Part shown: positions 35,760-63,853 of the stretch, one piece after another | Numbering within the stretch: position 1 is the stretch's first letter | How the letters are laid out: each line of letters begins with the position of its first letter | Virus record (IMG/VR): IMGVR_UViG_3300036821_000178 | Span: 1-63,853 of that record | Direction: 5' to 3' (one strand) | DNA length: 63,853 nucleotides | Source of the DNA: a virus | Lineage: Duplodnaviria > Caudoviricetes | The notes under the pieces: generated by a model | Database searches by the model: none | What the model saw: the letters and a program-made list of their open reading frames with translations, nothing else | What the model was told of the DNA's origin: nothing | Position numbers and translations under genes: made by a program

Positions 35760-35768
35760 CGTTACCGA

Positions 35769-35839: not shown

Positions 35840-35892
35840 CTAAACTGGTAGTGCCACCCCCGGTCAGCCATTAACGCGACCGGGGAGAGTCC

Positions 35893-36321: not shown

Positions 36322-36326
36322 ATCAA

Positions 36327-36403
36327 GGTCCTGTAGGGGAGTTGGAGTCCCCGCCACCCTGTCAAGGTGGAGATCGCCGGTTCGAGTCCGGTCTGGGCCG
36401 CCA
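36327..36403 (+). tRNA. tRNA-Asp(GTC)
   Basis: Cloverleaf; loop CT GTC AA; CCA end. Confidence 0.9.
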
Positions 36404-36404
36404 T

Positions 36405-36476
36405 ACCCGCGTAGCTCAATGGCGGAGCACCTGGACGACAGCCAGGAGGTCGCAGGCTCGGTACCTGCCGCGGGTA
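36405..36476 (+). tRNA. tRNA-Val(GAC)
   Basis: Cloverleaf; loop AC GAC AG. Confidence 0.75.
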
Positions 36477-36481
36477 CGCAA

Positions 36482-36555
36482 GTCCCGGCGGTCCAGCGGA
36501 TAAGGACACCTGACTACGAATCAGGAGATCGCAGGTTCGAGCCCTGCCCGGGACG
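36482..36555 (+). tRNA. tRNA-Arg(ACG)
   Basis: Cloverleaf; loop CT ACG AA. Confidence 0.85.
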
Positions 36556-36564
36556 CTTTATCTA

Positions 36565-36636
36565 GCCCGCTTAGCTCAACGGGAGAGCACTGCCGTCACG
36601 AGGCAGGGGTCGGGGGGTCAGCACCTCCAGCGGGTA
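36565..36636 (+). tRNA. tRNA-Val(CAC)
   Basis: Cloverleaf; loop GT CAC GA. Confidence 0.75.
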
Positions 36637-36638
36637 CT

Positions 36639-36709
36639 GAGGGCGTAGCACAAAGGCAGTGCGTCCGGTTGTGAGCCGGGATATGCGGTTTCAAGATCCG
36701 TCGCCCTCC
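36639..36709 (+). tRNA. tRNA-His(GTG)
   Basis: Cloverleaf; loop TT GTG AG; C discriminator. Confidence 0.75.
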
Positions 36710-36711
36710 CC

Positions 36712-36794
36712 GCCAGGTTGGCTGAGTCAGGACGAAAGCGCCCGGCTGTAAACCGGGATCCACGGACACGGAGGTTCAAATCCTTCACCTGGCA
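36712..36794 (+). tRNA. tRNA-Tyr(GTA)
   Basis: Long variable arm; loop CT GTA AA. Confidence 0.85.
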
Positions 36795-36798
36795 CCTC

Positions 36799-36870
36799 GT
36801 CCCCGGCAGCGGATCTGCCGCGGAGATTCCGAATCTCGGCTGTCCAGTCCGACTCTGGACGGGGGCACCA
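36799..36870 (+). tRNA. tRNA-Arg(CCG)
   Basis: Loop TT CCG AA; reduced D arm; CCA end. Confidence 0.65.
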
Positions 36871-36871
36871 T

Positions 36872-36943
36872 GGCGCATGTCTCGCCGGCGCGGGAGGCGG
36901 CCTGCAAAGCCGTCGCAGCTCGGTTCGACCCCGAGATGCGCCT
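36872..36943 (+). tRNA. tRNA-Cys(GCA)
   Basis: Loop CT GCA AA; U discriminator. Confidence 0.75.
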
Positions 36944-36948
36944 CTGAA

Positions 36949-37024
36949 CGGCCTGTGGCGCAACGGATAGCGCAGCTGCTTCCTAAGCAGAGGGTTGCGG
37001 GTCCGACTCCCGCCAGGCCGGCCA
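36949..37024 (+). tRNA. tRNA-Arg(CCT)
   Basis: Cloverleaf; loop TT CCT AA; CCA end. Confidence 0.85.
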
Positions 37025-40651: not shown

Positions 40652-40704
40652 TGTACGAACCTTCGTACAGTCTCGTGGTGTACGAGAACTCGTACACCAC
40701 GAGA
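40652..40704. promoter_or_regulatory. Tandem palindromic operator-like sites
   Basis: TGTACGA-N4-TCGTACA at 40652-40669 and 40679-40696; the second is nested in a perfect inverted repeat with 16-bp arms (40671-40704). Confidence 0.6.
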
Positions 40705-40714: not shown

Positions 40715-41032
40715 ATGACCTCGGAAGGCACTTTTCCCATCCCCAGGGAACTCCTGGCCGACGACGGCACGCTCTTCCTGATGCAAGCCCCCGACGACAC
40801 GATGGCCGGACTCGGGATCTGCAAGGGCGACTGGGCGATCGTCCGCGAGCAGAACGACGCCGAAAATGACGACTACGTCGTCACCATGATCGAGGGCGCA
40901 GCCGCAATCCGGTTCCTGGGAACGATCCACGGTGACCGCGTGCTGTTCGCCAGCTCCATATCCGAGCCGGTGATCCCGGCCAGGGACGCCGTGATCACCG
41001 GCCGCGTCGTGGCCGTCCTGCGGCAGATCTGA
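40715..41032 (+). CDS. LexA/S24 peptidase-like domain protein, apparently catalytically degenerate
   Basis: LFLMQAPDDTM..GICKGDWAIVREQNDAENDDYVV...ITGRVVAVLR; no N-terminal HTH. Confidence 0.7.
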   Translation: MTSEGTFPIPRELLADDGTLFLMQAPDDTMAGLGICKGDWAIVREQNDAENDDYVVTMIEGAAAIRFLGTIHGDRVLFASSISEPVIPARDAVITGRVVAVLRQI

Positions 41033-44187: not shown

Positions 44188-45147
44188 TCAGGCCGCTGCC
44201 CCGCCCAGTTCTGCTGCGGTCATGTCGTCTAGGCTCGGCTGGTACCTGAACTCGCACGAACTGCACAGCGGACCTGCGCCCGACGGCCTCTCCCTGCCAG
44301 CCCCCCACCCCCACTTGCAGCGCGACGGCTCGGCCACGGCAGAATCGAGCGCCCGGCGCTCCAGACCCCGGATCCGGTCAGCCGCATAAGGGAAGTAGTC
44401 GCCGATCTCCTCCAGCTCGCCAGAATGGGCAAAGGCCCCGCAAAGACACTCACCAGACATGTGGAGAAGATCGGATACCTCGTTGCGCGGCACGTCGTTC
44501 AGTGCCCGGTAGGTATTCAGGTCCTCGTTAGTCCAGTTGACGAGGGGGCTGACGAAAACTGCCGACCCCTTCACGTCCAGGTACTTGATCTTCTGGCGCC
44601 TCTTAGACTCCGCCCGGCGGCGGCCGCCGATGAGGATAACTCGCTGCCTGCGAGGCATCTGGCAGAGACGGACCTTGAGCGCGTCGATCGCGCGCTCCTT
44701 GAGGAAGGCGAACATCGTGCTGTGCGAGCCCGGCCCGGGAAAGCCCTTGAACTTGATCATCTGGCCTGGGCGGCGCAGGTCAGGGACCTGGCCGAGTACC
44801 AGCTCATCGTAGCCGCGGCCCGGGCGCGTGTGGTTCTCGATCAGCGGCAGATTCCACGTACTCGCCATATCACGGACGAAAACGCGCGTTTCCTCAATGC
44901 CGATGCCCGTATTGGCATGAAAGGCATGCGTCGCCTGATCGCGGAACAGGTGGACAAGTGTAGTCGAATCGTTGCCGCCGGAGAACAGCAGCACGGTGCC
45001 GCGCACGTCATAGCCGGCACATGCCTCTTCCCGTGCCTGACTCATGATCTCCCGTGACTCGGCGAGCTTCAGGTTCAGTCGGTAAATCCGCTCAGGCGAC
45101 AGGAACGCGCCTCTCGGAAGGGAGGCTGCCGGGGCAAGAGATGACAT
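44188..45147 (-). CDS. PAPS-reductase family (PP-loop) protein
   Basis: LLFSGGNDST, GGRRRAESKRR, SPLVNWT, SGECLCGAF. Confidence 0.85.
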   Translation of the reverse strand: MSSLAPAASLPRGAFLSPERIYRLNLKLAESREIMSQAREEACAGYDVRGTVLLFSGGNDSTTLVHLFRDQATHAFHANTGIGIEETRVFVRDMASTWNLPLIENHTRPGRGYDELVLGQVPDLRRPGQMIKFKGFPGPGSHSTMFAFLKERAIDALKVRLCQMPRRQRVILIGGRRRAESKRRQKIKYLDVKGSAVFVSPLVNWTNEDLNTYRALNDVPRNEVSDLLHMSGECLCGAFAHSGELEEIGDYFPYAADRIRGLERRALDSAVAEPSRCKWGWGAGRERPSGAGPLCSSCEFRYQPSLDDMTAAELGGAAA

Positions 45148-48100
45148 GGGGTGACTCCGGGCGGAGCGAAGGGGCATTGAGCAGCATGCTAACGCATGTC
45201 ATCTCTCACAACGGTGCGCCGCGCTGGTACCTATTCTCCAGTTTTTCTGTGCATGCACACTCAGCGCCCTCGATCTCCTCATTGCCCGCGCTTTTAGCAA
45301 AGATCACGAAAAAAGCGTTCGATGGCCGTCGGCACTGCCAGTCAAGCTCGGCCTGCCCGGCGGCGGTGATCTTCCAGATGATGGGCCTTACCCCGGCGGC
45401 GGCCGTCGCCCGGCCGGCCACTTTCACCCAGCCGGCCCGCTCCAGCCGGCGCAGCAGCTGGCCGCACAGGACAATCATCTTCGCCCGCGGCACGGGCTCG
45501 CCTAGGTGCTGCTCTAACTGCGAGGTCGTCATGCCGGCCGGGTGGCAGTCCAGCACCCCCAGCACCCGCAGCGGCCGGCCCCTCATCGCGACGACCATAC
45601 TGCGCTCGCAGGACGCGAGGTGGGATCATCGGTCCATGACGGATCCTGATCCTGATCCGGGTGATCTGGCGCGCGCCGGTGCCGCCGCAGTCCGCGACAA
45701 CGACCTGGCCAAGGAGGCCAGCGCGGCAAGCGCGCCGTTCAGCGTCAGCCTGCGGCGGCGGACAGCGGCGGAACGTCTGCGCTACCTGGCCGGGCTGCTG
45801 CACCGGGGCGAGGCGTACCGGCTGGCTGTCGCAGTGTCCCTGGAGGACCTGGCCCGCGAGCTTGAAGGCAGTCAGGCTGCAGCCAGGGGGTGAGGCGGGA
45901 CGGCCGCCAGCCTAGCTGCCTCGTCGCCAGGCCGGGCGTAATATGAGCGCGGGGTCCCCGGCCGCTCCGGACATGCGCACCCACCGTGCCGGGGGCCCTG
46001 TCAGTCACCCTCACCGCCAGCCCGGGCGTTACCGGGAATCCAAGGTGCACCATGACGGGAACACCCGGCGCCGCGAGCGCCGCCATCACAAGGCGATGAA
46101 GTCCGCCCGGCACGAGACCGGGCACGACGCGAAGATCCGCAAGGCAAAGCGGCGCGGCGTTCGCGAAATCTGCACCATCTGCGGGAGGCCCACATACCAG
46201 CGGCGACGGAAGGCGGCTGACCCTCCGGGGTTAGGCTTGCCCGGTGGGCCAGGACCAGGACCAGGATCTGAAGCGCGAGCAGTACGGGTGGTTCGGCGAG
46301 CCGTGGCCATCAGGCATCTGCTATGACGACGACGGCAGGCTGAGGACTGAGGATCGCAAGGACTTCCCGGCCGGGAAGTCCTGCTTCTGGTGCGGGGTCG
46401 CATTCGACGAGGCGGCCGGCGACGGCGGGAAGGCACTGCCTCATCTCGGCGCGGCCGGGGACACGATGCGCATCGTTCACGCGCACAGGGAGTGCCTGCT
46501 GCGCCAGGTCACCGGAAGCCTGGCGCATCTGGAAGGCCGGTGCTCTTGCCGCGGCGGCGATGACGTCCGCGAGCCTGCAGACCGGCGCGCCGAAGCCCTC
46601 GCCGTCTGGGACCGGATCCGGACCCGGGGGAGCGGCCGGGGTCGGATGGCCGCCCCCCCTCATCCTCATCGCCGCGGGTCAGTGCCTCCCGCGCGGTGAT
46701 CACCGGGAACTGAGCGTAGCGGGAACTGAGCTGCGTGCGGGGCGCTTCCGAGCATCTCGGTACGAGACACCGGAGCCCAGGCAATCGCGTCCTGCCGGAA
46801 TTGCCGGGCCAGGGCGGCCAGCTGCGACTTCAGGGAGCGCGCGCCGGCGGGAGTGGTCCTGATGCACCAGCAGGCGTTCTGGAAGGGCGCGGTCACGGCG
46901 CTGAAGAATGCCCCGTGGATCTCGTCCGCGCTCATGCACACGGCGTCGACAGCCAGGATGAGGTCGTGCCACTCACGCTGAGTCAGCCTGTCGTCACTGT
47001 TGCCGATGCTGACGTAGATATTCATGGCGTCCCCTTCAGGCGCTGGGCGGTGCAGCTCGTACCCCACGGGACTACGCCGCAGCGTCCGCGTGTCGCGTGC
47101 CCGCGAACAGCGCGGCTATGACGGCCTTCTGCCGGTCACTGGGGAGAGGTGCCTGGGCGTCGATCTCGCGCCCGTACTCCTCGTTGTCGCGCTCCTGGCG
47201 CGCGGCCGCGTCGCCAGGCCCGGCGCTCATCGTGCCGCCTCTTCCCACTGGTAGGCGGCCCCGCGCAGGAGATAGGGCGAGCCGGGCCAGCCGGGCAGCG
47301 AGCCCTCGGCGGTCTTCACGTAGCGGCCGGTGCTGTCGTAGTCCAGGACGTCGGGCAGCGGCCAGGTCCACGCCCCGGTCCCGTCGGAGTTGGCCACGCA
47401 CACCTCGCCGTCGCACGGGCCGCCCTCGGCGCGCAGCAGAAAGCGCTCAGGCGCGGTCACGGCCATCCCCGCAGGATGTCACGCACGGGGGGTGCCGGGC
47501 TTATCTCCCCCGGGACGGGGGCGCAGGGGCCGCCGCGCGGGGCCTGCCGGCATCAGGCGCTCAGGGTGAGCCGGATCGCCGTACCAGGCGTGCCAGTAAG
47601 CGTCACGGGCCGGGTCGAGCATCGCGTCCGCGCGGCGAATGATCTGATGCCCGGGGCTGCCCGGTGTGTCACTCATGGTGTCCGTGCACCTCGCCGAGCA
47701 CGTCAGCGGCGCGGGAGTCGTCGTAGTGCGGCGGCTCGTGAACGGTCGCGAGCAGGATGGCGAGCTGGCGGCCTGACATGATGCGCAGCCGGGCCAGGGC
47801 CGCAGACACTGCGGCGGCGGCGATGATGTCAGCGCCGCCGGCCACGGTGACGTCTTCCCGGATCCCGGCGGTCAGGGAGCGGCGCACGCGGGCGTGCAGC
47901 AGGTCGCGCAGCACCTCACGCTCGGCTGCGAGGGACAGGATCTGCGGGCGGCCGGCCTCAGCCATGATCCTCGCCTGCCTGCCGGCTGGCGGCGCTCGCG
48001 TTCACCGCGAGCGTCCACCCGCGGGCGTAAGCGGCTGACACAGCCGACCAGGTCAGCGCGCCGGCGGTATAGCCGGCCATGAGGCCGTAGTCACCGCGCA

Positions 48101-54567: not shown

Positions 54568-55020
54568 CGGGCCCGCGCACAGGCCTGAGAGCAACGCTGC
54601 GGGCCCGTGCGTGCGGGCCCGCACGCGACCACCTGAACCGGTCCGTTCGGCGGCCAGCCGTGCTCACGCGCGCGTGCGCGGGGACATGGGGGAGATCTGG
54701 ACGCGCGTGCGCACCCGTCCCCGCATCCCCCCTCACCCCTGATTATTGTCACTCGATGACGATATCCCCTACCTCTCCTGACCAGCCGTAACCGTTTGCC
54801 CTGAACAATCTTGGTTCTACGTCTTGCACAGACGTCCGAACGCACGCTATCTTGGTGTCTGTCGGCAAGGGCGAGAGCCCGGAACCCCCGCCCTTCCCCC
54901 CTACAGGGGAAGGGTCACCGATGGGGCTAACTTCACAACAAGCGCGCTGAGGAGAGATCCCCTGCACTGTCACTACCTCGCAAGAGGCAAGCCAACTGGG
55001 GATGCCCGCAGAGAGGCCCG

Positions 55021-55371
55021 GGGATAGCATCGCCGGCGCAGAGACCATGCGGACTGAAGCGCGGACCCTTCCCCCTACGGGGACAGTGAATATGACCGGG
55101 GCGAACAGGCCCCGGATGCACTAGCGGGTAACTAATCTCCACACGCCTGGTGTGGCACTGCCGGACAATCTTCCGTGTACTCGGACAGTCGGCAAGCCCG
55201 GGGCTGAAGCCAGATCCGCTAGCGCATGGTCCGAGCACTACAGTCCGGCAACGGGCTAGGTTCTCGCGCGTTTGCTCCGCGAGACTCCGGCGTCACAGCA
55301 TGCGGACCGCATATCTCTCTCTCACTCTCACAAGAGTGAGGTACGGGGCTATCCCTTGCGGATGGCCCCGT
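55021..55371 (+). ncRNA. Candidate structured leader/ncRNA upstream of the array
   Basis: Nested complementary segments and several local hairpins; no convincing ORF. Confidence 0.35.
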
Positions 55372-55425
55372 GTCTCGCCCGGAGCGCACGTGCATGCCGC
55401 ACGCGCGCTGAGAGGAGAGACCCGG

Positions 55426-55719
55426 ATGCTTCCCTACATTGAGCGCGGCGAGGCTGGCATGGTCATTCTCGCCGAGGACGACAGCACGGGCACCTACTAC
55501 TGGTCAGAGCCCGTGAGCAGGCTTGACACGCACGCACCCGCGGGCGTGTCTCACGTGGTGCTGGCAGACGGCGGTGTCCTTGCCGGCTGGATAGCCGACA
55601 TGACACCTGTCCGCCCGGGCACGACCGCGCGCGCACTCAGCGCTGACGGTGCCGCTCTGCCTAGCCGGCACGGGGACTTTGAAGGTGCCATGACGGCTGT
55701 TATCGACAACCATTCCTGA
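55426..55719 (+). CDS. Array ORF 1, hypothetical
   Basis: GAGAGGAGAGA RBS then ATG. Confidence 0.7.
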   Translation: MLPYIERGEAGMVILAEDDSTGTYYWSEPVSRLDTHAPAGVSHVVLADGGVLAGWIADMTPVRPGTTARALSADGAALPSRHGDFEGAMTAVIDNHS

Positions 55720-55720
55720 T

Positions 55721-55780
55721 CCTGACCTGTTGCGGGGGAGATGTGCCTGACCGGGCGCGTCTCCCCCGTTGCATGCCAGG
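55721..55780 (+). repeat. Array hairpin R1 (class A variant, CCTG...CAGG ends)
   Basis: CCTGACCTGTTGC-[stem]-GTTGCATGCCAGG. Confidence 0.75.
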
Positions 55781-55808
55781 CAGCATGCACGCGAGAGGAG
55801 AGATCACG

Positions 55809-56033
55809 ATGGCCATCTTCCGCCCGGTTATCGCGGACAACGACACGCCGGCAGACATGACTGAGGACGCGGCGCAGATGTACGCGCGCTCACTTGCCCG
55901 TGCGCACAGGCAGGCAATGTCCGTACTTCAGCGCGGCGGGGACTACCTGATCCTTGCCGCGTCGTCGTTCACCGCCGGCGAGGCGCGGTACGCCGCTGAC
56001 GGCTGGCACCTGATCGGCACGCAGCAGGCCTAG
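55809..56033 (+). CDS. Array ORF 2, hypothetical
   Basis: Array RBS; TAG stop inside R2. Confidence 0.7.
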   Translation: MAIFRPVIADNDTPADMTEDAAQMYARSLARAHRQAMSVLQRGGDYLILAASSFTAGEARYAADGWHLIGTQQA

Positions 56034-56082
56034 ACACTGCCTGTGCTGCCCGGCACCGCCGGGCAGTGCGGAGTGTGCCTAG
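56030..56082 (+). repeat. Array hairpin R2 (class B)
   Basis: CTAGACACTGCCTGTG-[stem]-TGCGGAGTGTGCCTAG. Confidence 0.85.
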
Positions 56083-56112
56083 ACGGGTGCACGAGAGAGG
56101 AGAGAAACCCCG

Positions 56113-56433
56113 ATGGAATTGCATGGCACCTACACGGGCCCCAGCTACGGCACGATGGATTACCGCGACGGACTGGAGAGTTTCACCTCGCTCCGGCAGG
56201 CACAGGAACGTTTCTCCGAGCGCCTTCACACCTCCGGGGCGTGGCCGCTGGATGTCACTCGCGTGACGTTCAGCGATGACGGCTCCGCATGGACCGAAGA
56301 AGCGGAGTTCGTCTGCTTCCCCGCGACCACCTATGAGGATGTGCTGACGCTGTACGTTCCCGGTAATTACGACAACATCGCCTGGCAGATCACGGCCGGA
56401 CCGCACGGCGGGGTCAGGACAGAGCGAGGCTGA
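56113..56433 (+). CDS. Array ORF 3, hypothetical
   Basis: Array RBS. Confidence 0.7.
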   Translation: MELHGTYTGPSYGTMDYRDGLESFTSLRQAQERFSERLHTSGAWPLDVTRVTFSDDGSAWTEEAEFVCFPATTYEDVLTLYVPGNYDNIAWQITAGPHGGVRTERG

Positions 56434-56444
56434 GTGAACCGCAC

Positions 56445-56498
56445 CCAGCGCGTTGCGGGCGGCACGGGATCACTTCCGTGCCGCCCGCTGCCCGCTAG
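56445..56498 (+). repeat. Array hairpin R3 (class A)
   Basis: CCAGCGCGTTGC-[stem]-GCTGCCCGCTAG. Confidence 0.85.
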
Positions 56499-56519
56499 GG
56501 CAAGCGAGAGGAGAGAACG

Positions 56520-56744
56520 ATGGACGGTGTTATCACGCTGGTCAACGGTCACGGGACGTTCACTGCTCCCGCGATCACTGTTCAGCAGCGCCTTAACTGG
56601 TACGCAGGGTTCGGCGATGATGCCCCGCAGCGCGCACGGGCCGATTTTGCGCGCCGGCTGGGAGCGCCGGCGTTCGCCTACTGGGATGTGCCCGACACGC
56701 TTTCACTGTCGGTCATGCTCGTGCACGCGGAGCAGCATTCCTAG
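56520..56744 (+). CDS. Array ORF 4, hypothetical
   Basis: Array RBS; stop inside R4. Confidence 0.7.
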   Translation: MDGVITLVNGHGTFTAPAITVQQRLNWYAGFGDDAPQRARADFARRLGAPAFAYWDVPDTLSLSVMLVHAEQHS

Positions 56745-56793
56745 CGCGTTGCGGGGTGCACGAGACTGGCTCGTGCACCCCGTTGCCCGCTAG
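56741..56793 (+). repeat. Array hairpin R4 (class A)
   Basis: CTAGCGCGTTGC-[stem]-GTTGCCCGCTAG. Confidence 0.9.
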
Positions 56794-56852
56794 GGCAGTA
56801 AGGAACGGCCGCACGGGCGGCAGCTTGATCGCTTGGCATGAGAGGAGAGACA

Positions 56853-57149
56853 GTGAAGGTCAGGACGAACAACACCCCGCGCGACGTCATAGACGGAAGT
56901 CAGCTCACGCCGGCGGAGCGTGCGAAGTTTGACTATCTGGACTGGCCGGCTATCGAGGCCGGGACTGACAGCGCCTTGTTCTTCCGCTATCGCGGGACCG
57001 TGCATGACATGAGTGAGTTCATGCGCACGACAGGCGAGCTCGCAGACGCCGGCTGGCAGGGGTACAGCAGTGACTCCTACTCCTCCGCCACCGTCATCCG
57101 CATTACCGACGATGGCGAAGGAGTAGTTGTCGGCTATGCCACAACCTAG
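56853..57149 (+). CDS. Array ORF 5, hypothetical
   Basis: Array RBS, GTG start; stop inside R5. Confidence 0.7.
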   Translation: MKVRTNNTPRDVIDGSQLTPAERAKFDYLDWPAIEAGTDSALFFRYRGTVHDMSEFMRTTGELADAGWQGYSSDSYSSATVIRITDDGEGVVVGYATT

Positions 57150-57200
57150 CGCGTTGCGTGCGACCTGGGCGACATGTCCGGACCGCGCGCTGCCCGCTAG
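57146..57200 (+). repeat. Array hairpin R5 (class A)
   Basis: Class A arms. Confidence 0.9.
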
Positions 57201-57229
57201 GGCAGAGGTACCCGAGAGGAGAGATCACG

Positions 57230-57451
57230 ATGGACCCTGACGTTGCCCTGTCTAATGCTCGCGACGCCCTGACCCGCTACCGGTTCGCTCAGGATGCGCA
57301 GGAACGGGAAGAAGACCAGACGTCGCCGGCGTCCGATCAGCACCGGGTTAACGCCGAGGATGCGGCTTCCGATCTGGCCGGCGCATTCGAGGCGCTTGAC
57401 GGATGGATGTCCGGGCGGGGATTCGCGCCGGCCGCATGGCCGCGCCCGTAA
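57230..57451 (+). CDS. Array ORF 6, hypothetical
   Basis: Array RBS; MDPD...FEALDGWMSGRGFAPAAW. Confidence 0.7.
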   Translation: MDPDVALSNARDALTRYRFAQDAQEREEDQTSPASDQHRVNAEDAASDLAGAFEALDGWMSGRGFAPAAWPRP

Positions 57452-57455
57452 GTTC

Positions 57456-57505
57456 CTAGCGCGTTGCATGGCTACCGGCCAGCCGGTAACCGTGTTGCCC
57501 GCTAG
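57456..57505 (+). repeat. Array hairpin R6 (class A)
   Basis: Class A arms. Confidence 0.9.
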
Positions 57506-57528
57506 GGCAAACGAGAGGAGAGAACACG

Positions 57529-57843
57529 ATGGCACGAATCGTCGGCACATCCTTTGCTATCGTCGCGCTGGTCATTGCCGGCGCGTTCGCGTGGGCGGCG
57601 CTGACCGGCAGTCCGCCGGCCGTCTCCCGGGTGCCCGGGGGCATCGGGGCCGGGTGCATCGGCACGGGCTACTACCCCTCGCCCGTGCCGTGCACGGCCA
57701 GCCGGCTGCACTCGCTCATGGGGGCAATCGTGCACGGCCAGACCATCACGATTGACGGCCGGACCTACCGCGCAGCTCACTGCCAGCGCGAACGGGGACA
57801 TGCTCCCGGCCAGCGCTCGCACTGGCAGGTGATGTGCGGCTAG
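57529..57843 (+). CDS. Array ORF 7, putative membrane/secreted protein
   Basis: Array RBS; N-terminal hydrophobic segment, four Cys. Confidence 0.7.
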   Translation: MARIVGTSFAIVALVIAGAFAWAALTGSPPAVSRVPGGIGAGCIGTGYYPSPVPCTASRLHSLMGAIVHGQTITIDGRTYRAAHCQRERGHAPGQRSHWQVMCG

Positions 57844-57850
57844 ACCGCAG

Positions 57851-57918
57851 CTGGACACTGCCCGTGATCCCCAGGGAGCTCACTGTAGCTGGCCCCGGGG
57901 GTCGCGGAGTGTGCCCAG
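57851..57918 (+). repeat. Array hairpin R7 (class B, CTGG...CCAG ends)
   Basis: CTGGACACTGCCCGTG-[stem]-CGCGGAGTGTGCCCAG. Confidence 0.85.
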
Positions 57919-57946
57919 ACAGGCACGCGAGAGGAGAGAAGCAAAC

Positions 57947-58285
57947 ATGACCGATGCTCACTGGCACGCTTACAGCAATGTGGCGGGCTATCTGTCAGAG
58001 CAGGATGAGATTCCCGCGATGGACTGGGAAGACGCGCGCGGTTCGCTCGACCACGACATAGAGCGTGAGCGCGATTCGCTGGATTACGCCCCGGAAACAG
58101 ATTCCGATGAAGACGACCGGACTCAGGCGCTCTATAACTCGCTTACAGACGCGCTGACCGCCGTACGGAATGCGACCCCCGGTCAGGACTTCCTGGCCTA
58201 CACCGACGATGGCACGTCGCACACCATACCGACCGCGTGGCAGATCGTCTCGTGCACGGAAACCGACTGCCAGCCGGCAGAGTGA
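57947..58285 (+). CDS. Array ORF 8, acidic hypothetical
   Basis: Array RBS. Confidence 0.7.
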   Translation: MTDAHWHAYSNVAGYLSEQDEIPAMDWEDARGSLDHDIERERDSLDYAPETDSDEDDRTQALYNSLTDALTAVRNATPGQDFLAYTDDGTSHTIPTAWQIVSCTETDCQPAE

Positions 58286-58288
58286 GCG

Positions 58289-58339
58289 CTAGCGCGTTGC
58301 ATGACTCCCGGTCCCCCCGGGAGCCGTGCTGCCCGCTAG
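58289..58339 (+). repeat. Array hairpin R8 (class A)
   Basis: Class A arms. Confidence 0.9.
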
Positions 58340-58362
58340 GGCAGGCGAGAGGAGAGAAAACT

Positions 58363-58716
58363 ATGCAGTGCAAGCACGGCGATGGCGCGATTCACGACGA
58401 CGGCCATCGCCATGACGGTGCAAGCCCGTGCTACGTGCACTCCGCTACCGGAATGCACGTCTGCCACACGGAAGACGGCTACCTCAGCACTAATGCGGAA
58501 CCGCTGACCACTGAGGAGCAGGTCACCCGGGCGCGCCGGCTAGGCGCGGTTCACTACGGGGCCGGCGTCCATCTGGACATGCAAGACGAAGACTCCGCGC
58601 AGCTCATGGACGCGCTGAACGAAACCGGCCCGACCACTGAGGACAACCATCCGGCGCGCTACCGGATGTGCGAGGCATACGAGGATGGCCGGCAGGCAGC
58701 TGCCGGCGGGGCATGA
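58363..58716 (+). CDS. Array ORF 9, Cys/His-rich hypothetical
   Basis: Array RBS. Confidence 0.7.
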   Translation: MQCKHGDGAIHDDGHRHDGASPCYVHSATGMHVCHTEDGYLSTNAEPLTTEEQVTRARRLGAVHYGAGVHLDMQDEDSAQLMDALNETGPTTEDNHPARYRMCEAYEDGRQAAAGGA

Positions 58717-58730
58717 CTGACCCCCCTTGA

Positions 58731-58780
58731 CCTGACCTGTTGCGGGCGGCACGGGATTTACCCCCCGTGCCGCGCGCCGC
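58731..58780 (+). repeat. Array hairpin R9 (class A variant, right arm lost)
   Basis: CCTGACCTGTTGC left arm identical to R1; inner stem like R3; no right arm or RBS. Confidence 0.65.
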
Positions 58781-58952
58781 GCCGCGCGCTGGCCGCATGG
58801 TCACCAGCGCCGCCTGGCGCGGCGGGCACGGGCGCCACCGCGGGCACCGTAAGGCGCGGTAAGTTGCACGGCCCCGGGTGGCACCTGCATAACCTGATCG
58901 CCGCTCTTGTCCTTAGCTGGGCAGAGCGCGCACTGCGGAGGAGGTACCAGCA

Positions 58953-59006
58953 CTAGGCGCGTTGCGGCGCGCACGGGATCACCCGTGCGCGCCGTTGCCC
59001 GCCTAG
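58953..59006 (+). repeat. Array hairpin R10 (class A with extra G-C pair)
   Basis: CTAGGCGCGTTGC-[stem]-GTTGCCCGCCTAG. Confidence 0.9.
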
Positions 59007-59027
59007 GGCAGATGAGAGGAGAGATAC

Positions 59028-59447
59028 ATGAGCGAGATCACCGGCTACACGTTCAGCGCTGACCAGTACTGCCCCGACGACATGCGCCAGATGACGCTAG
59101 AGCGTCTCTGGACACTAGGCGAGCGACGTGCTGACAGGTTCGCGCCGGGTGCGGAAGATGTCCTAGATGAACTGGCACGCATCCTCGGCGTTAACCGCGC
59201 CGATGAATACTCATTCGACTCCGGTTACTTCCCGAAGGTCATATTCGGCAGCATGGCGCACGACGGATGCAGCACGGCCAGCGGGTACGACCCGGGCCAG
59301 TGCGGGGACGCATGCGGAGCATGCGGTTACCCGCTGGGCGGCCCATGCCCGAACGGATACGAGGGCCCGAACACCATTCCGGCCGGGACAGGTGACGCTG
59401 TCGCCCGCACTGCTCACTACGAGGAGCGCACGGCCGACCGGCGCTAG
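59028..59447 (+). CDS. Array ORF 11, hypothetical
   Basis: Array RBS; DEYSFDSGYFPKVIF, CGACG; stop inside R11. Confidence 0.7.
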   Translation: MSEITGYTFSADQYCPDDMRQMTLERLWTLGERRADRFAPGAEDVLDELARILGVNRADEYSFDSGYFPKVIFGSMAHDGCSTASGYDPGQCGDACGACGYPLGGPCPNGYEGPNTIPAGTGDAVARTAHYEERTADRR

Positions 59448-59496
59448 CGCGTTGCGTGCGGCGCGGGATCTTCCCGCGCGGCGCGTTGCCCGCTAG
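59444..59496 (+). repeat. Array hairpin R11 (class A)
   Basis: Class A arms. Confidence 0.9.
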
Positions 59497-59522
59497 GGCA
59501 CGAGAGAGGAGAGACTGTAACC

Positions 59523-59903
59523 ATGAGTGACAGCCTTAACGACATCATGGAATTTGACCACGTGATACAGGTCAGCCCCGATGGCACCGTCAGTGACGGG
59601 CCGGCGGGCATCTACGCCCCGGAATCGGTGATCGATACCGACGATGACGGTCAGATCGGGCTGCCCGACGAGACGGAATGGCAGGAATCCCTTAGCCGGC
59701 AGGGCTGGGAAGTCCTGACGGGCTACTCCGGTCAGGATCGCTACCCGGGTCCGATCATGCACGCCTCCGAGTCCATCGGCGGCGCGCTGGCCGGCCACAT
59801 CCGGGCGACCCCCGGGCTGTGGGTCGCGGTGTCCGTCGAGACGCTAGACGATTCCGGAGAGGCGACCGGCTGGGCGGTATGCCACCGTGACCTGCCGGAA
59901 TGA
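59523..59903 (+). CDS. Array ORF 12, hypothetical
   Basis: Array RBS; LTGYSGQDRYPGPIMHASESIGG. Confidence 0.7.
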   Translation: MSDSLNDIMEFDHVIQVSPDGTVSDGPAGIYAPESVIDTDDDGQIGLPDETEWQESLSRQGWEVLTGYSGQDRYPGPIMHASESIGGALAGHIRATPGLWVAVSVETLDDSGEATGWAVCHRDLPE

Positions 59904-59909
59904 CAAGCG

Positions 59910-59964
59910 CTAGCGCGTTGCGTGCGGCCTGGACGACACATCCGGGGCGCGCGTTGCCCGCTAG
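59910..59964 (+). repeat. Array hairpin R12 (class A)
   Basis: Class A arms. Confidence 0.9.
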
Positions 59965-59991
59965 GGCACCTAACCGAGAGGAGAGATCACG

Positions 59992-60360
59992 ATGGACTCA
60001 CCAATAGAGACACGTCATGTGGAATCCGGCGGTCTGGGCTTCACTATCTCGCTCTACCGGGATCCGGACGTGGATATCACCGATTCCGACGCCTATTCGG
60101 AAGCCGACATCGCTGCATGGAAGCGTGATGAATGGACTTTCGTAACGGTGGAGGTCCGTTCGGACGTCGGCGGGATCTATGACGACCTCGGCGCGTGCGC
60201 GTTCGGGACCGGCGACGGATGGACCGTCAGTATGGACAGGATGGTTACCGAGTATCCCGTGCCCGACATGCTGAGCGCGGTCAAGCGCAAGATGCGGCGC
60301 GACCTGCCCGCCATGCGCGCCGAGATCGACGCTGCCATAGCCGCAACCAAGAGCGCCTAG
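59992..60360 (+). CDS. Array ORF 13, paralog of ORF 16
   Basis: Array RBS; DIAAWKRDEWTFV, EYPVPD; stop inside R13. Confidence 0.75.
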   Translation: MDSPIETRHVESGGLGFTISLYRDPDVDITDSDAYSEADIAAWKRDEWTFVTVEVRSDVGGIYDDLGACAFGTGDGWTVSMDRMVTEYPVPDMLSAVKRKMRRDLPAMRAEIDAAIAATKSA

Positions 60361-60410
60361 CGCGTTGCGTGATCCCCGGGCGCAAGCCCGGGGGTGGCGC
60401 TGCCCGCTAG
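60357..60410 (+). repeat. Array hairpin R13 (class A)
   Basis: Class A arms. Confidence 0.9.
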
Positions 60411-60432
60411 GGCAATGAGAGGAGAGATCACG

Positions 60433-60855
60433 ATGGCGCAGTTCAGGACCGGCGACGAAATCGCGGTCGACGACCCGAAGTACCCCGGCGTGTGGATTGT
60501 CCGGAAGGTCAACCCGACCACGTACGCGGCCGACCCGAAGGAAGGCGGGCGCGGGCTGAAGCTGCCGCACGCCATGGCGCTGCCGGCCAGCGAGGCCCGG
60601 GAGGCGGGCCCCGTGGGCATCGCGGCACCCGAGCGCCCGGAAGGACTCCGCACGGGCGCGCTCGTGCGCATCAAGCCGGGCCGCGTGCGCGGGATCAGTG
60701 ACCCCGCCGCGCTGTTCGTGGTGTTCGCGGACAAGTACGACACGGTGAACGTGACCATGCTCGGAGGCGACCCGGGCCGGCGCTACTGGCGCTTGCCGCC
60801 CAGCTGTATTACCGAGGTGATTGACCCGGCCCGGGTGACCGTGGCCGCGTCCTAG
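60433..60855 (+). CDS. Array ORF 14, possible tandem SH3-like barrels
   Basis: Array RBS; FRTGDEI and LRTGALV repeats; stop inside R14. Confidence 0.65.
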   Translation: MAQFRTGDEIAVDDPKYPGVWIVRKVNPTTYAADPKEGGRGLKLPHAMALPASEAREAGPVGIAAPERPEGLRTGALVRIKPGRVRGISDPAALFVVFADKYDTVNVTMLGGDPGRRYWRLPPSCITEVIDPARVTVAAS

Positions 60856-60901
60856 CGCGTTGCATGGCCCCTAGGCGACCGGGGACCGTGTTGCCCGCTA
60901 G
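60852..60901 (+). repeat. Array hairpin R14 (class A)
   Basis: Class A arms. Confidence 0.9.
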
Positions 60902-60927
60902 GGCAGAGGTACTAAGAGAGGAGAGAT

Positions 60928-61122
60928 ATGGAATACGTGGGATTCACGGTGTCCTTTTCGCTCGACAACGCCGAGGCGGAGGAGATGGGCACGGACATGG
61001 CCGTTCCCGCTTACCTCCGGCAAGTCGCTGACAAGGCGGAGGACGGTCAGACATCCGGCACTGTCCGCGACGGCAACGGCGTGACCATCGGCAGTTTCGA
61101 GGTCACCCGCACGCCGGCCTAG
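60928..61122 (+). CDS. Array ORF 15, hypothetical
   Basis: Array RBS; LRQVADK...GTVRDGNGVTIG; stop inside R15. Confidence 0.7.
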   Translation: MEYVGFTVSFSLDNAEAEEMGTDMAVPAYLRQVADKAEDGQTSGTVRDGNGVTIGSFEVTRTPA

Positions 61123-61171
61123 GCGCGTTGCGTGGTCCCCGGTTCACCCGGGGCCCGCGTTGCCCGCCTAG
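61119..61171 (+). repeat. Array hairpin R15 (class A with extra G-C pair)
   Basis: CTAGGCGCGTTGC-[stem]-GTTGCCCGCCTAG. Confidence 0.9.
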
Positions 61172-61199
61172 GGCAGATCGGAACGAGAGGAGAGGCAGA

Positions 61200-61604
61200 A
61201 TGAGCAGGCCATTTGAGACCCGTCATATCGAGGACAAGGGGCTTGGCTTCACGGTGGAGCTGTGGCCAGACGAGGACTCGACGACCGACGACGCCGAGTG
61301 CTACTCGCCCTCGGACATCGCGGCATGGCAGCGTGACGAGTGGTCGTTTATCGGCGTCGTCGTGCGCTCCGACACCGGGGACTTGCAAGAGTCCCTGTGG
61401 TCAGTCGAGTACGGCTCCTGTCCGGCCGAGACAGAGCCGTTCCAGGGCGGCATGCACGAGGCGTGGACCGTCGATACGGACAAGATCGTTTCCGAGTACC
61501 CAGTGCCGGACCTGCTGTCCGAACTGCGCTCACGCATGCACAAGGAACTTCCGGCGCTGCGCGAGCAGGTCAACGCGGCCATAGCCGCGACCGAGAGAGA
61601 CTAA
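61200..61604 (+). CDS. Array ORF 16, paralog of ORF 13
   Basis: Array RBS; DIAAWQRDEWSFI, EYPVPD. Confidence 0.75.
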   Translation: MSRPFETRHIEDKGLGFTVELWPDEDSTTDDAECYSPSDIAAWQRDEWSFIGVVVRSDTGDLQESLWSVEYGSCPAETEPFQGGMHEAWTVDTDKIVSEYPVPDLLSELRSRMHKELPALREQVNAAIAATERD

Positions 61605-61608
61605 GGGG

Positions 61609-61664
61609 CTAGACACTGCCCGTGTCACCCGGGGCGATTCCCGGATGGCGCGGAGTGTGCCTAG
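61609..61664 (+). repeat. Array hairpin R16 (class B)
   Basis: Class B arms. Confidence 0.9.
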
Positions 61665-61698
61665 ATCGCACACTGGCGAGAGGAGAGGTAAGAGACGC

Positions 61699-61947
61699 AT
61701 GGACATTTACACCGCCCTGTGCGACCCGATCGACGGGCACAGCCAGAAAACGGACCTGGTAGGGGTTTTCAGCACCGAGCCCAAGGCGCGCGACGCATGC
61801 CAGGTCCACGCCGACGAGGACGGAGACACCGGCCCGGACGACCCGGGCCGGCTGGTCCTGCAATGGAACGAGGACAGCGCCGAGGGGCGCGACGGCCGCA
61901 AGTACGTCGTGATTCTGGGCGACCTTGACCGGCGAACGGGCACCTAA
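61699..61947 (+). CDS. Array ORF 17, hypothetical
   Basis: Array RBS; LVGVFSTEPKA; TAA stop inside R17. Confidence 0.7.
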   Translation: MDIYTALCDPIDGHSQKTDLVGVFSTEPKARDACQVHADEDGDTGPDDPGRLVLQWNEDSAEGRDGRKYVVILGDLDRRTGT

Positions 61948-61997
61948 CGCACAGCGTGACCCCCGGGCAGGTGCCCGGGGGCTGCGCTGCCCGCTAG
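61944..61997 (+). repeat. Array hairpin R17 (class A, degenerate left arm)
   Basis: CTAACGCACAGC-[stem]-GCTGCCCGCTAG. Confidence 0.8.
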
Positions 61998-62018
61998 GGC
62001 AGACGAGAGGAGAGATGG

Positions 62019-62669
62019 ATGCTGTCAGAGATGATGGAAGTCCGCGACGCTACCCGGGCGTGGCAGCACGCGGCCGGCCGGCAGCGGGCGGACGCGGCTA
62101 GCGAGCTGGCCCTGCGCGCTGAGGAGCTGATGCAGGCCCTCGCATGGTGGGGCGTGGACACACCCGAGGCGCGCGCCCTGAAAGGCGCGCTGGGCGTGTA
62201 CCAGGCCGATCCGGAGACGTGGTATCGCAGTCCCGATGCCCCCGGCTCGCGCGCGGTCACAGATGCCATCGTGACCGCGTTCGATGCGTTCGCCCGGAGC
62301 GCCCACGGCCGCCAGGCCGAGGCCGGCGACCGGGATCCCGTAAGGGCCATGCCGGCCGAGGCCGGGCGCTGGGTATCGGAGGCGGCGTTCGGAGTGCCGG
62401 CCAACTGCGGCCAGATGGTGCTGCTGGCCTGCGCCCGCGGGTGGGTCAATCCCGCCGCGCTGGCACTGGCCGGGCGTGCCGTGGGCACGGGCCCGGCGCT
62501 GACCGAGGACGAGTCGTGCGCGCTGTGCGAGAAGTACGCGATCGAGGCTGAGTACTGGCTCAATGGGCACTGCGCCCCGCCCGGCTACCTGTTCGGGTGG
62601 AAAGATCTTTCGTTCTACTTCGAGAGCGCGGAATGGTGGGCCGAGCACGACGGGCCCGACCAGCTTTAG
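62019..62669 (+). CDS. Array ORF 18, hypothetical
   Basis: Array RBS; 216 aa. Confidence 0.7.
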   Translation: MLSEMMEVRDATRAWQHAAGRQRADAASELALRAEELMQALAWWGVDTPEARALKGALGVYQADPETWYRSPDAPGSRAVTDAIVTAFDAFARSAHGRQAEAGDRDPVRAMPAEAGRWVSEAAFGVPANCGQMVLLACARGWVNPAALALAGRAVGTGPALTEDESCALCEKYAIEAEYWLNGHCAPPGYLFGWKDLSFYFESAEWWAEHDGPDQL

Positions 62670-62728
62670 CTAGACACTGCCCGTGGCCACCCGGCGATGG
62701 ATGCCGGGTGACTGCGGAGTGTGCCTAG
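62670..62728 (+). repeat. Array hairpin R18 (class B)
   Basis: Class B arms. Confidence 0.9.
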
Positions 62729-62763
62729 ACCCCTAGGAACACTGACGAGAGGAGAGACGGGCT

Positions 62764-63033
62764 ATGCCGAAATACGACGTGGAAGTCAGCCACACAATCA
62801 CGGTCACGGTGCCGGTTCAGGCGGATTCGCCGGCAAAGGCGCACGAGACCGTAAGCCGGCGCGATTTCCCGCTGCCCCCGCGCGATCAGTGGACGGGCGG
62901 CAAAGACTGGTCTTATGTCGTATATGGCGAGGACGGCACCAAGCTGGGCGGCGACGACGGCGACGGAAGCGGCTACGGGTCCTGTGAGGACCTCCCCAGC
63001 GAGCACGAGTACGGCTGGTATGAGGAGAACTAG
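62764..63033 (+). CDS. Array ORF 19, hypothetical
   Basis: Array RBS; YDVEVSHTITVTVPVQADS..KA. Confidence 0.7.
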   Translation: MPKYDVEVSHTITVTVPVQADSPAKAHETVSRRDFPLPPRDQWTGGKDWSYVVYGEDGTKLGGDDGDGSGYGSCEDLPSEHEYGWYEEN

Positions 63034-63040
63034 ACCGGAC

Positions 63041-63093
63041 CTAGCGCGTTGCGGGGTGCGCGAGCATGTCTCGCGCACCCCGTTGCCCGCTAG
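63041..63093 (+). repeat. Array hairpin R19 (class A)
   Basis: Class A arms; inner stem related to R4. Confidence 0.9.
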
Positions 63094-63118
63094 GGGCAGC
63101 GCGAGAGGAGAAACGACC

Positions 63119-63376
63119 ATGAGGACTGCCGCCCAGAACAGCGTGAATCGCGCGGCGAAGTTCCATCCGGAAACGACTGACGACGAGCGGCCGGCTATCG
63201 AGGTTGCCGGCGTGCTGGTGTTCACCTACGTGAACGAGGATGGAATCCTGTGCGTCTCAGTCGATCTGGATACACCGGACCGTGACGTGTTCCCCGCCGA
63301 ATGCGTGCCACTGCGCGTGACGGTACAGGGTAATACGGTGTTCGCGGCCGACCAGGACGGCACCACCTGTAGCTAG
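63119..63376 (+). CDS. Array ORF 20, hypothetical
   Basis: Array RBS; stop inside R20. Confidence 0.7.
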   Translation: MRTAAQNSVNRAAKFHPETTDDERPAIEVAGVLVFTYVNEDGILCVSVDLDTPDRDVFPAECVPLRVTVQGNTVFAADQDGTTCS

Positions 63377-63426
63377 ACACTGCCCGTGGCGCGCGGGGAA
63401 ACCCGCGCGTTGCGGAGTGTGCCTAG
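63373..63426 (+). repeat. Array hairpin R20 (class B)
   Basis: Class B arms. Confidence 0.9.
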
Positions 63427-63457
63427 AACGGCACGCGAGAGAGGAGAGATGAGGGGA

Positions 63458-63853
63458 ATGGAACGATTCCGGCTAGTGGTCAAGGTCAGCCCGGATGACC
63501 CGGGCAGTGCGGCGCAAGAGGCGAAAGATCTCCTGTACGCGCCGGGCGCGCCCACCAGCAAGAGCGTTGCGGCCACGGTCGCATACCTCGCCACGCTGGA
63601 CGGCGGCGCGTCTGCGGGCTCACACGTCTATACCACGCTGCCCGTGTTTCTGGGCGAGCTGTGGGAGCGTGCAGGTAACTACCTGCTCACGTGGCGCGGG
63701 CCCGCTATCAAGCTGTACGAGATCCACGCCGACGAGCCTGCCGAAAAGGTTCTGTGTGGAGCACACGCGGGCGTTCACGACGAGAGGCCGGATTGCGCCT
63801 GGCCCCATTTCTTCCACGGACAGGGCCCGATGCCCGTTGTCGGTCACCCGCTT
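63458..63853 (+). CDS. Array ORF 21, hypothetical, runs off window end
   Basis: Array RBS; frame open from MERFRLVVKV to the end. Confidence 0.65.
   Translation, partial: MERFRLVVKVSPDDPGSAAQEAKDLLYAPGAPTSKSVAATVAYLATLDGGASAGSHVYTTLPVFLGELWERAGNYLLTWRGPAIKLYEIHADEPAEKVLCGAHAGVHDERPDCAWPHFFHGQGPMPVVGHPL

Follow-up and report, generated by a model that had tools for sequence, protein, structure and literature searches.

Since 2011, actinobacteriophages have been known to carry repeats that join an over-conserved ribosome-binding site (RBS) to inverted repeats just upstream, and the cited account (PMC3203893) gives no mechanism for them. The start-associated sequence (SAS) is there described as a 13-bp conserved asymmetric motif that contains the RBS, lies 3 to 8 bp from start codons and is found at non-structural genes only; its extended form is termed ESAS. 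Here, we describe a series of intergenic units in a virus record of 63,853 bp and 69% GC (IMGVR_UViG_3300036821_000178), which was analyzed over its whole length, hereafter the window, and derives from an uncultured soil phage. From 55.4 kb to the record end, the window carries 20 small plus-strand genes in succession, and 19 intergenic units with one common layout lie between 55.7 and 63.5 kb. As far as the cited passages describe the SAS and ESAS of Cluster K mycobacteriophages and Cluster EF Microbacterium phages (PMC3203893, PMC7302621), the likeness lies in an over-conserved RBS-containing motif just 5' of some non-structural genes, one orientation, unusually long intergenic gaps, unrelated gene families, and imperfect inverted repeats with a variable spacer just upstream. 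We show that the units of the window are sense-strand, three-strand, two-state RNA elements tied to a fixed polypurine RBS.

Each unit consists, in this order, of a left arm that usually includes the TAG stop codon of the upstream gene, a variable GC hairpin, a conserved right arm, a short spacer, the motif GAGAGGAGA, and the start codon of the next gene. The motif precedes every gene of the array (0.57 copies are expected in the window and 24 are present, of which the array accounts for 20), and the start codon follows 3 to 13 nt 3' of its GGAG, which also holds for the four genes with GAGAGGAGA outside the array. The intergenic gap measures 71 to 108 nt in 18 of 19 cases, and all units are oriented like the genes. 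The encoded proteins are orphans: none of the 20 reached the Pfam cut-off, and weak PHROG matches were obtained for seven, six of them to families of unknown function.

We number the units of the window (genome G0 in our comparisons) U1 to U19; U1 to U8 correspond to repeats R1 to R8 and U9 to U19 to R10 to R20 of a preceding sequence-only reading of this DNA, and R9 is a degenerate copy. Thirteen units belong to class A, with CCTAGCG on the left, which in most cases provides the TAG stop of the upstream gene, a GC-rich stem-loop that varies between units, CG(Y)GTTGCCCGCTAGGGCA on the right, and 2 to 10 nt before the RBS. Five belong to class B (left CTAGACACTGCCCGTG, right GCGGAGTGTGCCTAGA), and U1 represents a further type. 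The class A element TGCCC-GCTA-GGGCA is present in 10 exact plus-strand copies between 56,489 and 62,001 and in 12 copies at up to two mismatches (1.02 expected), with the variants TGCCCGCCTAGGGCA at 58,996 and 61,161 and TGCCCGCTAGGGGCA at 63,084.

The right arm has two possible partners. It pairs either with the left arm, giving a long outer helix (21 to 24 bp in all), or with the spacer, giving a second hairpin (hairpin 2). Folded alone, the long helix of class A comprises 7 bp, a C.C mismatch, 2 bp, a U.U mismatch, and 12 to 14 bp; the span from CTAG to CTAGGG is 52 to 57 nt in 12 class A units of the window, with unrelated inner sequences. Hairpin 2 is built from the 5' part of the right arm (TGCCC, GTGTGCC, or TGCATGC) and the next 8 to 20 nt, and has 5 to 10 bp. 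It begins exactly at the U of the conserved U.U mismatch and ends 0 to 10 nt 5' of the polypurine RBS in 18 of 19 units, the exception being U4, where the class A arm lies 42 nt upstream. The sequence-only reading had spelled out this hairpin for class A, R1, R7 and R20, and R16, and all four of these sequences are exact and located where it had placed them. Its statement that hairpin 2 and the outer helix exclude each other was borne out as well: when the 3' strand of hairpin 2 was blocked, the nucleotides of the 5' strand paired leftwards with the left arm in 17 of 18 units (the miss is again U4, in which the RBS-proximal hairpin is another one). The further remark that the 3' strand changes to match each class was true and even understated, as this strand also varies within class B, pairing with one arm in different registers.

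Unconstrained minimum free energy (MFE) folding of the 19 units yielded the outer helix in 11 (U4, U5, U6, U8, U9, U10, U11, U12, U13, U14, and U16; class A with an intact left arm), hairpin 2 in seven (U1, U2, U3, U7, U17, U18, and U19; these are U1, units of class B, and a pair of class A units in which the left arm is weakened), and neither fold in U15; the preferred fold depends on the class. U4 switches to hairpin 2 when the 3' boundary of the folded stretch is changed.

A hairpin of at least 5 bp and at most -8 kcal/mol that ends within 6 nt of the RBS was detected at 19 of 20 sites in the window, at 20 of 29 sites in a related viral contig (G001), and in 38% of 3000 random 30-nt windows, hairpins being common in DNA of 69% GC and the copies within a class not being independent of each other. 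Stronger is a shuffle test in which the conserved arm was kept and only the nonrepeated spacer was shuffled, for 13 units from three sources that belong to class B or to a third class, C. Pairing between spacer and arm surpassed 95% of the shuffles (P < 0.05) in 11 of the 13 units, with a Fisher's combined P-value of 1.7e-10, or 4.3e-7 for the nine distinct 3' strands. These strands pair with different registers of one arm in class B (GGGTGCAC, GGCACGC, GCACAC, CCTAGG..ACACT, and GGGGTAC) and read GTGGGCAC, GTAGGCATGG, and GGCACG in class C. The observation of two alternative folds is confirmed as real and statistically supported.

Several observations support a function of the units at the RNA level, as the sequence-only reading had claimed in general terms. 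RNAalifold identified 13 inner pairs in 18 class A sequences, 11 of them with double-sided changes, and the inner stems differ wholly yet remain paired. For the outer helix, a single clean compensatory change (A-U to G-C) was found, with CTGG/CCAG in U7 versus CTAG/CTAG in the other four class B units; in two class A units (subclass A', below), an insertion of 1 nt is matched in the two arms. Of 30 whole units, 22 fold more stably as the sense strand, seven less stably, and one equally (P = 0.0025), the split being 14 versus 4 when the window is considered alone. Hairpin 2 of classes B and C is more stable on the sense strand in 11 of 13 units (mean difference -3.0 kcal/mol, sign test P = 0.011), with G.U pairs making up 14 of 99 pairs there and 5 of 91 on the other strand. 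Since both hairpin 2 and the whole units fold better on the sense strand, RNA is indicated. Invariance in 17 to 18 of 18 sequences from three phages is also seen for the GCA that follows the outer helix on its 3' side and for the U and C of its right strand that are mismatched. Only hairpin 2 explains the conservation of these bases.

Alternatively, TGCCC-N4-GGGCA and the arm pairs could be operators or activator sites in DNA, bound by a phage DNA-binding protein. Of 18 copies of the 14-bp class A site from three phages, 17 are identical, and the phage encodes several helix-turn-helix proteins. DNA-binding proteins were preferred for ESAS by Pope et al. in the passages cited (PMC3203893), and short inverted repeats 14 to 22 bp 5' of start codons are described for Cluster EG phages (PMC7302621). 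Nevertheless, we regard such sites as very unlikely to account for the units: the second halves of classes B and C vary in sequence, register, and loop (4 to 10 nt) and yet stay complementary, their G.U pairs worsen folding of the other strand in 11 of 13 units, the inner stems are unrelated in sequence but always paired, and a single orientation, that of the genes, is kept throughout.

The position of stop codons suggests a different use of the RNA. The upstream stop lies inside the left arm in 13 of 19 units, as TAG in 12 and as TAA in U16. Several class B arms in both the window and G001 read TAGCTAG, with TAG in two frames, and one left arm of G001 (L065, reverse complement, about 9,285 to 9,300) reads CTAGGTAGCTAGC, with TAG in all three frames; judged from their sequence, the arms seem designed to stop any incoming reading frame. 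The units might thus act uncleaved as an insulator or coupling device, in which the long hairpin puts the left-arm stop beside the next RBS and terminating ribosomes are handed on without the need for a nuclease. Once a ribosome has melted the left arm, hairpin 2 would park the right arm away from mispairing with the Shine-Dalgarno (SD) sequence. When the first 24 nt, corresponding to the footprint of a terminating ribosome, were blocked, which also mimics a lost left arm, hairpin 2 formed in 16 of 18 units by automatic count, and the two misses (U4 and U12) still print TGCCC/GGGCA; such a device also shares the evidence for RNA given above. We consider it unlikely, as the predicted accessibility of the translation start is the same in both states: for a free and a blocked left arm, respectively, the probability of being unpaired is 0.62 and 0.60 at the SD and 0.42 and 0.41 at the start codon. 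Equal accessibility in both folds means that simple gating of the RBS by sequestration is not supported, which leaves the translation-coupled switch offered as an alternative by the sequence-only reading without support as an RBS gate. Further, the left arms are unchanged in U3, U6, U8, U11, and U15 although the gene stops earlier. U7 has lost the TAG of its arm, and this loss is compensated on the right arm; therefore it is the pairing that matters, not the stop itself.

Intercistronic RNase III sites of phage T7 and of the Bacillus phage SP82 are hairpins of about two helical turns with internal mismatches, and SP82 has a polypurine 5' stabilizer. By analogy with these sites, we tentatively favor the units being a processing and stability module in which hairpin 2 caps the new 5' end, an account that we hold to be plausible but short of probable. 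The units would lie in one long early transcript carrying about 20 orphan genes, and the long helix would be the substrate of a double-strand-specific endonuclease, for which host RNase III is the obvious candidate. Cleavage by this enzyme would fall on the 3' side, either at the conserved mismatches or close to them. The inner hairpin would then remain on the upstream cistron as a block to 3' exonucleases, and the freed right arm would refold into hairpin 2, with which the downstream cistron would now begin. Hairpin 2 and the ribosomes bound at the strong SD could jointly shield the message from the 5'-end-dependent RNases E and J, and all orphan genes would receive the same insulated 5' untranslated region (UTR). 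With 21 to 24 bp, and with the C.C and U.U mismatches in class A, the long helix has the size of an RNase III site (double-stranded RNA of some 20 bp or longer that frequently contains an internal loop), and the start of hairpin 2 at the U.U mismatch of this helix fits a cut followed by formation of a protective 5' hairpin. Stabilization of mRNAs by 5' stem-loops and RBS-bound ribosomes, including that of a phage SP82 mRNA, is covered in the cited part of a review (PMC7509114). In its fullest form, the proposal is a cut-and-cap insulator: cleavage at the conserved mismatches, snapping of hairpin 2, an identical protected 5' UTR and 3' hairpin for every orphan gene, and arms that permit gene swaps. 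This complete combination we see as possible but doubtful.

A number of points weigh against processing followed by capping. In class B, the uncut RNA favors hairpin 2 by about 3 to 6 kcal/mol, and on these predictions the long helix may rarely be formed. Hairpin 2 of class A has only five invariant base pairs, and invariant pairs cannot covary within the class; a possible sixth pair is formed in 9 of 13 units by hand count, where about 9.8 are expected from composition, and likewise shows no covariation. The invariant right arm would also fit a protein-binding site. The strand bias of whole units is 8 versus 3 in G001 alone (P = 0.24), and the strand asymmetry over all 49 RBS-upstream tails is not significant (29 versus 20, P = 0.45). 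According to Sharp and Bechhofer, as quoted in the review (PMC7509114), a hairpin 2 to 3 nt from the SD could hinder ribosome binding. No phage-encoded nuclease was found among the window ORFs scanned. The search of sequencing runs returned one run that contains the window DNA, a soil metagenome DNA run that may be the source sample, and no RNA run. A PHROG label "RNase E" for 21,060 to 21,632 has no Pfam or PDB support, and this ORF occupies the position expected for the small terminase subunit; we rejected it as a nuclease lead.

Relatives of the module were searched with composite patterns of arm and RBS. Among viral contigs, one true relative was obtained, G001 (98.5 kb), whose large terminase (TerL) is 73% identical to that of the window and which carries a 15-kb array of units on the minus strand. 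Metagenome contigs likewise gave one true relative, L146 (3.4 kb). The sole match among genome contigs, L064, was dismissed as a chance match, as were 61 single matches obtained by scanning viral contigs with the 15-mer alone. Both G001 and L146 carry class A and class C units, and G001 also class B. Among the further variants of hairpin 2 in G001, TGCCT..AGGCA and CGCCC..GGGCG differ from TGCCC..GGGCA by changes on both sides of the stem; the others are CTGCCC-GTAC-GGGCAG and GATGCC..GGCATC. A possible link in G001 between the right arm of V9 and the left arm of V10, which flank one gene, rests on single bases and was dropped. The module was not found in TerL relatives at 55 to 66% identity (G002 to G006), nor in Streptomyces phage TurkishDelight or Actinoplanes phage phiAsp2, which are the closest named relatives by terminase (about 53% identity). 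In TurkishDelight (L149, 74.5 to 90 kb), right-arm genes end in CCTGACC followed by GC-rich hairpins without U-tracts, and a repeated TTGACA-type promoter-like block occurs in four intergenic regions; from its sequence, this right arm appears to be a different, PeSL-like (promoter-early stem-loop) solution in a relative.

The two arrays differ in their genes. Only one family is common to the G001 array and the 20 window proteins, and arms and RBS are nearly identical. This family comprises the genes at 59,992 to 60,360 and 61,200 to 61,604, which are paralogues within the array (47% amino acid identity), and its G001 homolog lies at 7,245 to 7,592 of the L065 reverse complement. Units of G001 and L146 align at 78 to 89% identity, and the genes that follow their class A unit are unrelated. 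The arms and RBS could therefore be seen primarily as short patches of homology for swapping orphan genes, as in the PeSL cassettes in the cited description (PMC2839356), with the hairpins being secondary. As the main function we find this quite unlikely: homology patches need neither hairpins nor compensatory changes nor a sense-strand G.U bias, and complementarity of the spacers in different registers is left unexplained. Recombination is compatible with an RNA function and does not exclude it, and the conserved arms probably double as recombination joints.

Signals of other known elements were searched for. A scan with the sigma-70 consensus only gave no promoter-like site in 54,800 to 63,853. 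Three terminator-like sites with U-tracts were found, none of them in a unit hairpin, and the inner hairpins are followed by GTTGCC or TGCGG. Rfam reported only tRNAs at the gathering threshold, with sub-threshold matches to miRNA-type hairpins in 54,700 to 63,853. The integron core sites GTTRRRY and RYYYAAC are missing from the units, whose arms read CCTAGCG...CGCTAGG, and no integrase was detected among the 67 ORFs scanned in what is probably a fragment of a genome. The GC-rich hairpins directly after stop codons, of which TurkishDelight has similar ones, could be terminators or attenuators that do without a U-tract. Such terminators are reportedly present in the early region of phiC31. For the units, this explanation is barely credible. 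None of them has a U-tract, and purified mycobacterial RNA polymerase is stated to fail to terminate without one in the part of the study cited (PMC3993855). The 3' strand of hairpin 2 is transcribed after the long hairpin and therefore cannot act as an antiterminator, and, as the units contain no promoter, efficient termination would silence the array.

The individual units are as follows (all on the plus strand). The leader of the first array gene (U0, 55,383 to 55,428) has a hairpin at 55,383 to 55,409 that abuts the RBS (55,410 to 55,418; start codon at 55,426) and lacks left and right arms. U1 (R1; 55,717 to 55,811) has the left arm CCTGACCTGTTGC, an inner hairpin, and the right arm GTTGCATGC; its hairpin 2, TGCATGC-CAGGCA-GCATGCA (55,770 to 55,789), is part of the MFE structure and precedes the RBS at 55,793.

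Among the class B units, U2 (R2; 56,031 to 56,115) carries the stop TAG in its left arm CTAGACACTGCC and has the right arm GCGGAGTGTGCCTAGA; its hairpin 2 (56,073 to 56,092; RBS at 56,095) has 8 bp including three G.U pairs, a shuffle P-value of 0.026, and an energy of -10.5 on the plus versus -4.1 on the minus strand. U7 (R7; 57,841 to 57,949), the unit with the compensated arm pair, has GTGTGCC-CAGACA-GGCACGC at 57,909 to 57,928 (RBS at 57,929, shuffle P = 0.017). In U15 (R16; 61,602 to 61,701), hairpin 2 reads GTGTGC-CTAGATC-GCACAC (61,655 to 61,673; RBS at 61,678, shuffle P = 0.068), and in U17 (R18; 62,667 to 62,766) AGTGT.CCTAG-ACCC-CTAGG.ACACT (62,718 to 62,743; RBS at 62,747, shuffle P = 0.041). 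U19 (R20; 63,374 to 63,460) ends the series with GTGTGCC-TAGAAC-GGCACGC (63,417 to 63,436; RBS at 63,439, shuffle P = 0.011), and the last gene leaves the record.

Class A begins with U3 (R3; 56,431 to 56,522), where the left arm CCCAGCG introduces a C.A mismatch into the outer helix and hairpin 2, TGCCCGCTAGGGCA at 56,489 to 56,502, is found in the MFE structure (RBS at 56,506). U4 (R4; 56,742 to 56,855) forms a 23-bp long hairpin, and two extra small hairpins lie between its right arm (56,784 to 56,797) and the RBS at 56,840. The sequence TGCCCGCTAGGGCA recurs in U5 (R5; 57,147 to 57,232) at 57,191 to 57,204 with the RBS at 57,214, in U12 (R13; 60,358 to 60,435) at 60,401 to 60,414 with the RBS at 60,417, and in U13 (R14; 60,853 to 60,930) at 60,892 to 60,905 with the RBS at 60,916. 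In U6 (R6; 57,449 to 57,531), the stop TAA lies 8 nt before the arm and CCTAGCG is still kept; hairpin 2 spans 57,495 to 57,510 (RBS at 57,513). For U8 (R8; 58,283 to 58,365), U10 (R11; 59,445 to 59,525), and U11 (R12; 59,901 to 59,994), hairpin 2 is located at 58,329 to 58,344, 59,487 to 59,500, and 59,955 to 59,968, with the RBS at 58,347, 59,504, and 59,976, respectively. U16 (R17; 61,945 to 62,021) has the left arm CCTAACG, which holds the stop TAA and causes an A.C mismatch in the outer helix (hairpin 2 at 61,987 to 62,002, RBS at 62,005), and U18 (R19; 63,031 to 63,121) is the variant with TGCCCGCTAGGGGCA (hairpin 2 at 63,081 to 63,101, RBS at 63,103).

Two units form a subclass A' with a matched 1-nt insertion in both arms (left CCTAGGCG, right CGCCTAGG). 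One is U14 (R15; 61,120 to 61,202; hairpin 2 at 61,160 to 61,176, RBS at 61,185). The other, R10, has hairpin 2 at 58,995 to 59,011 and the RBS at 59,014 and belongs to U9 (58,714 to 59,030), a gap of 311 nt (58,717 to 59,027) that also contains the degenerate R9. R9 (about 58,727 to 58,790) shares its left arm with U1 and retains an inner hairpin but lacks both the right arm and the RBS; it has the appearance of a remnant left by a lost gene.

Immediately 5' of the array, about 600 nt (54,792 to 55,409) contain no convincing ORF. A (TC)n-rich hairpin, CTCACTCT-CACA-AGAGTGAG, is located at about 55,319 to 55,338 and a 10-bp hairpin at about 55,345 to 55,369, and the pyrimidine run shows partial complementarity to the polypurine RBS motif. 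This stretch could be the promoter or leader of the array, or a small RNA.

The window contains head and packaging genes and is probably a fragment, because the last gene runs off the record end; a phage DNA collection searched with array and window DNA gave no match, near or distant. ARAGORN predicted 31 tRNA genes in 32,219 to 37,024, without an amber suppressor, and Rfam 24. An Rfam match to tRNA-Sec (35,126 to 35,212), which was not called by ARAGORN, has the anticodon UGA and was reassigned to a long-arm tRNA-Ser. A portal protein of 1220 aa with a Hint domain (10,409 to 14,071) and a MuF-like head protein with an intein splicing domain (8,227 to 10,404; both on the minus strand) suggest two inteins in structural genes. 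A DpdA family protein (25,544 to 26,449, minus strand; E-value 2e-63) and a PAPS-reductase-domain protein (44,188 to 45,177, minus strand) suggest DNA modification of the 7-deazaguanine type. A protein with an AbiEii nucleotidyltransferase domain (type IV toxin-antitoxin) is encoded at 5,939 to 6,610 (minus strand), within the phage record. The palindrome GTACGA-N4-TCGTAC is present twice, at 40,653 to 40,668 and 40,680 to 40,695 (0.03 expected), immediately 5' of a GAGAGGAGA RBS and of a gene whose product contains a LexA/CI-like Peptidase_S24 domain (40,715 to 41,032); from this arrangement, the two copies are probably a repressor operator pair.

How the units relate to described systems can be summarized as follows. 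The SAS motif GGGATAGGAGCCC and the window motif GAGAGGAGAGA are unrelated in sequence; as GAGAGGAGA differs from GGGATAGGAGCCC, the likeness to SAS and ESAS is one of kind, and homology is not shown. In the cited descriptions, ESAS have 17-bp imperfect arms around a 4 to 13 bp spacer without an inner hairpin, whereas the window units have arms of 7 to 13 nt around a perfect hairpin of 35 to 60 nt. The ESAS authors state there that the departures from symmetry do not support RNA pairing, in contrast to the pairing, compensatory changes, and sense-strand bias seen here, and a competing second hairpin is not part of that account. The PeSL cassettes of T4-type phages, as presented in the cited text (PMC2839356), are also repeated composite stem-loop units between orphan early genes. 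They combine a strong sigma-70 promoter with a terminator stem-loop and are described there without arm pairing or an alternative fold, whereas our units consist of stem-loops with no promoter-like sites and no U-tract terminators. PeSL units mark differences in gene content between related phages; in the lineage of the window, the units are conserved and the genes differ. The ompA-type 5' stabilizers (Emory et al. 1992, as cited in the relevant part of PMC7509114) share the small stable 5' hairpin upstream of the SD, but are located at the ends of primary transcripts, whereas hairpin 2 would be 5'-terminal only after a cut. In a full-text literature search, whose coverage did not extend to the phiC31 early-region papers, no account of such repeats with a second, competing hairpin was found.

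With the RNase III sites of T7 and SP82, the units have in common hairpins with mismatches in polycistronic mRNA, a 3' hairpin upstream after the cut, and a polypurine RBS near the new 5' end; there is no sequence relation, and cleavage of the window units is inferred. To our knowledge, neither the T7 nor the SP82 sites are described as having a cut arm that is built to refold into a hairpin at the 5' end. Integron attC sites resemble the units in that they separate the short genes of a promoterless array and are imperfect inverted repeats whose outer boxes are conserved, whose central stem varies, and which contain unpaired bases. They differ in that the window units include a conserved RBS and that the folded strand is the sense strand. 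Synthetic operons make use of engineered ribozyme or Csy4 insulators. If the cut-and-cap proposal is true, the units would be their natural counterpart and the first bistable pre- and post-cleavage intercistronic element described in actinophages, and would explain how a phage can shuffle unrelated orphan genes without disturbing their expression. Elements of the same kind as SAS and ESAS here show clear signs of RNA folding and a built-in alternative fold, and cutting and capping would, if true, offer a mechanism for these long-unexplained repeats.

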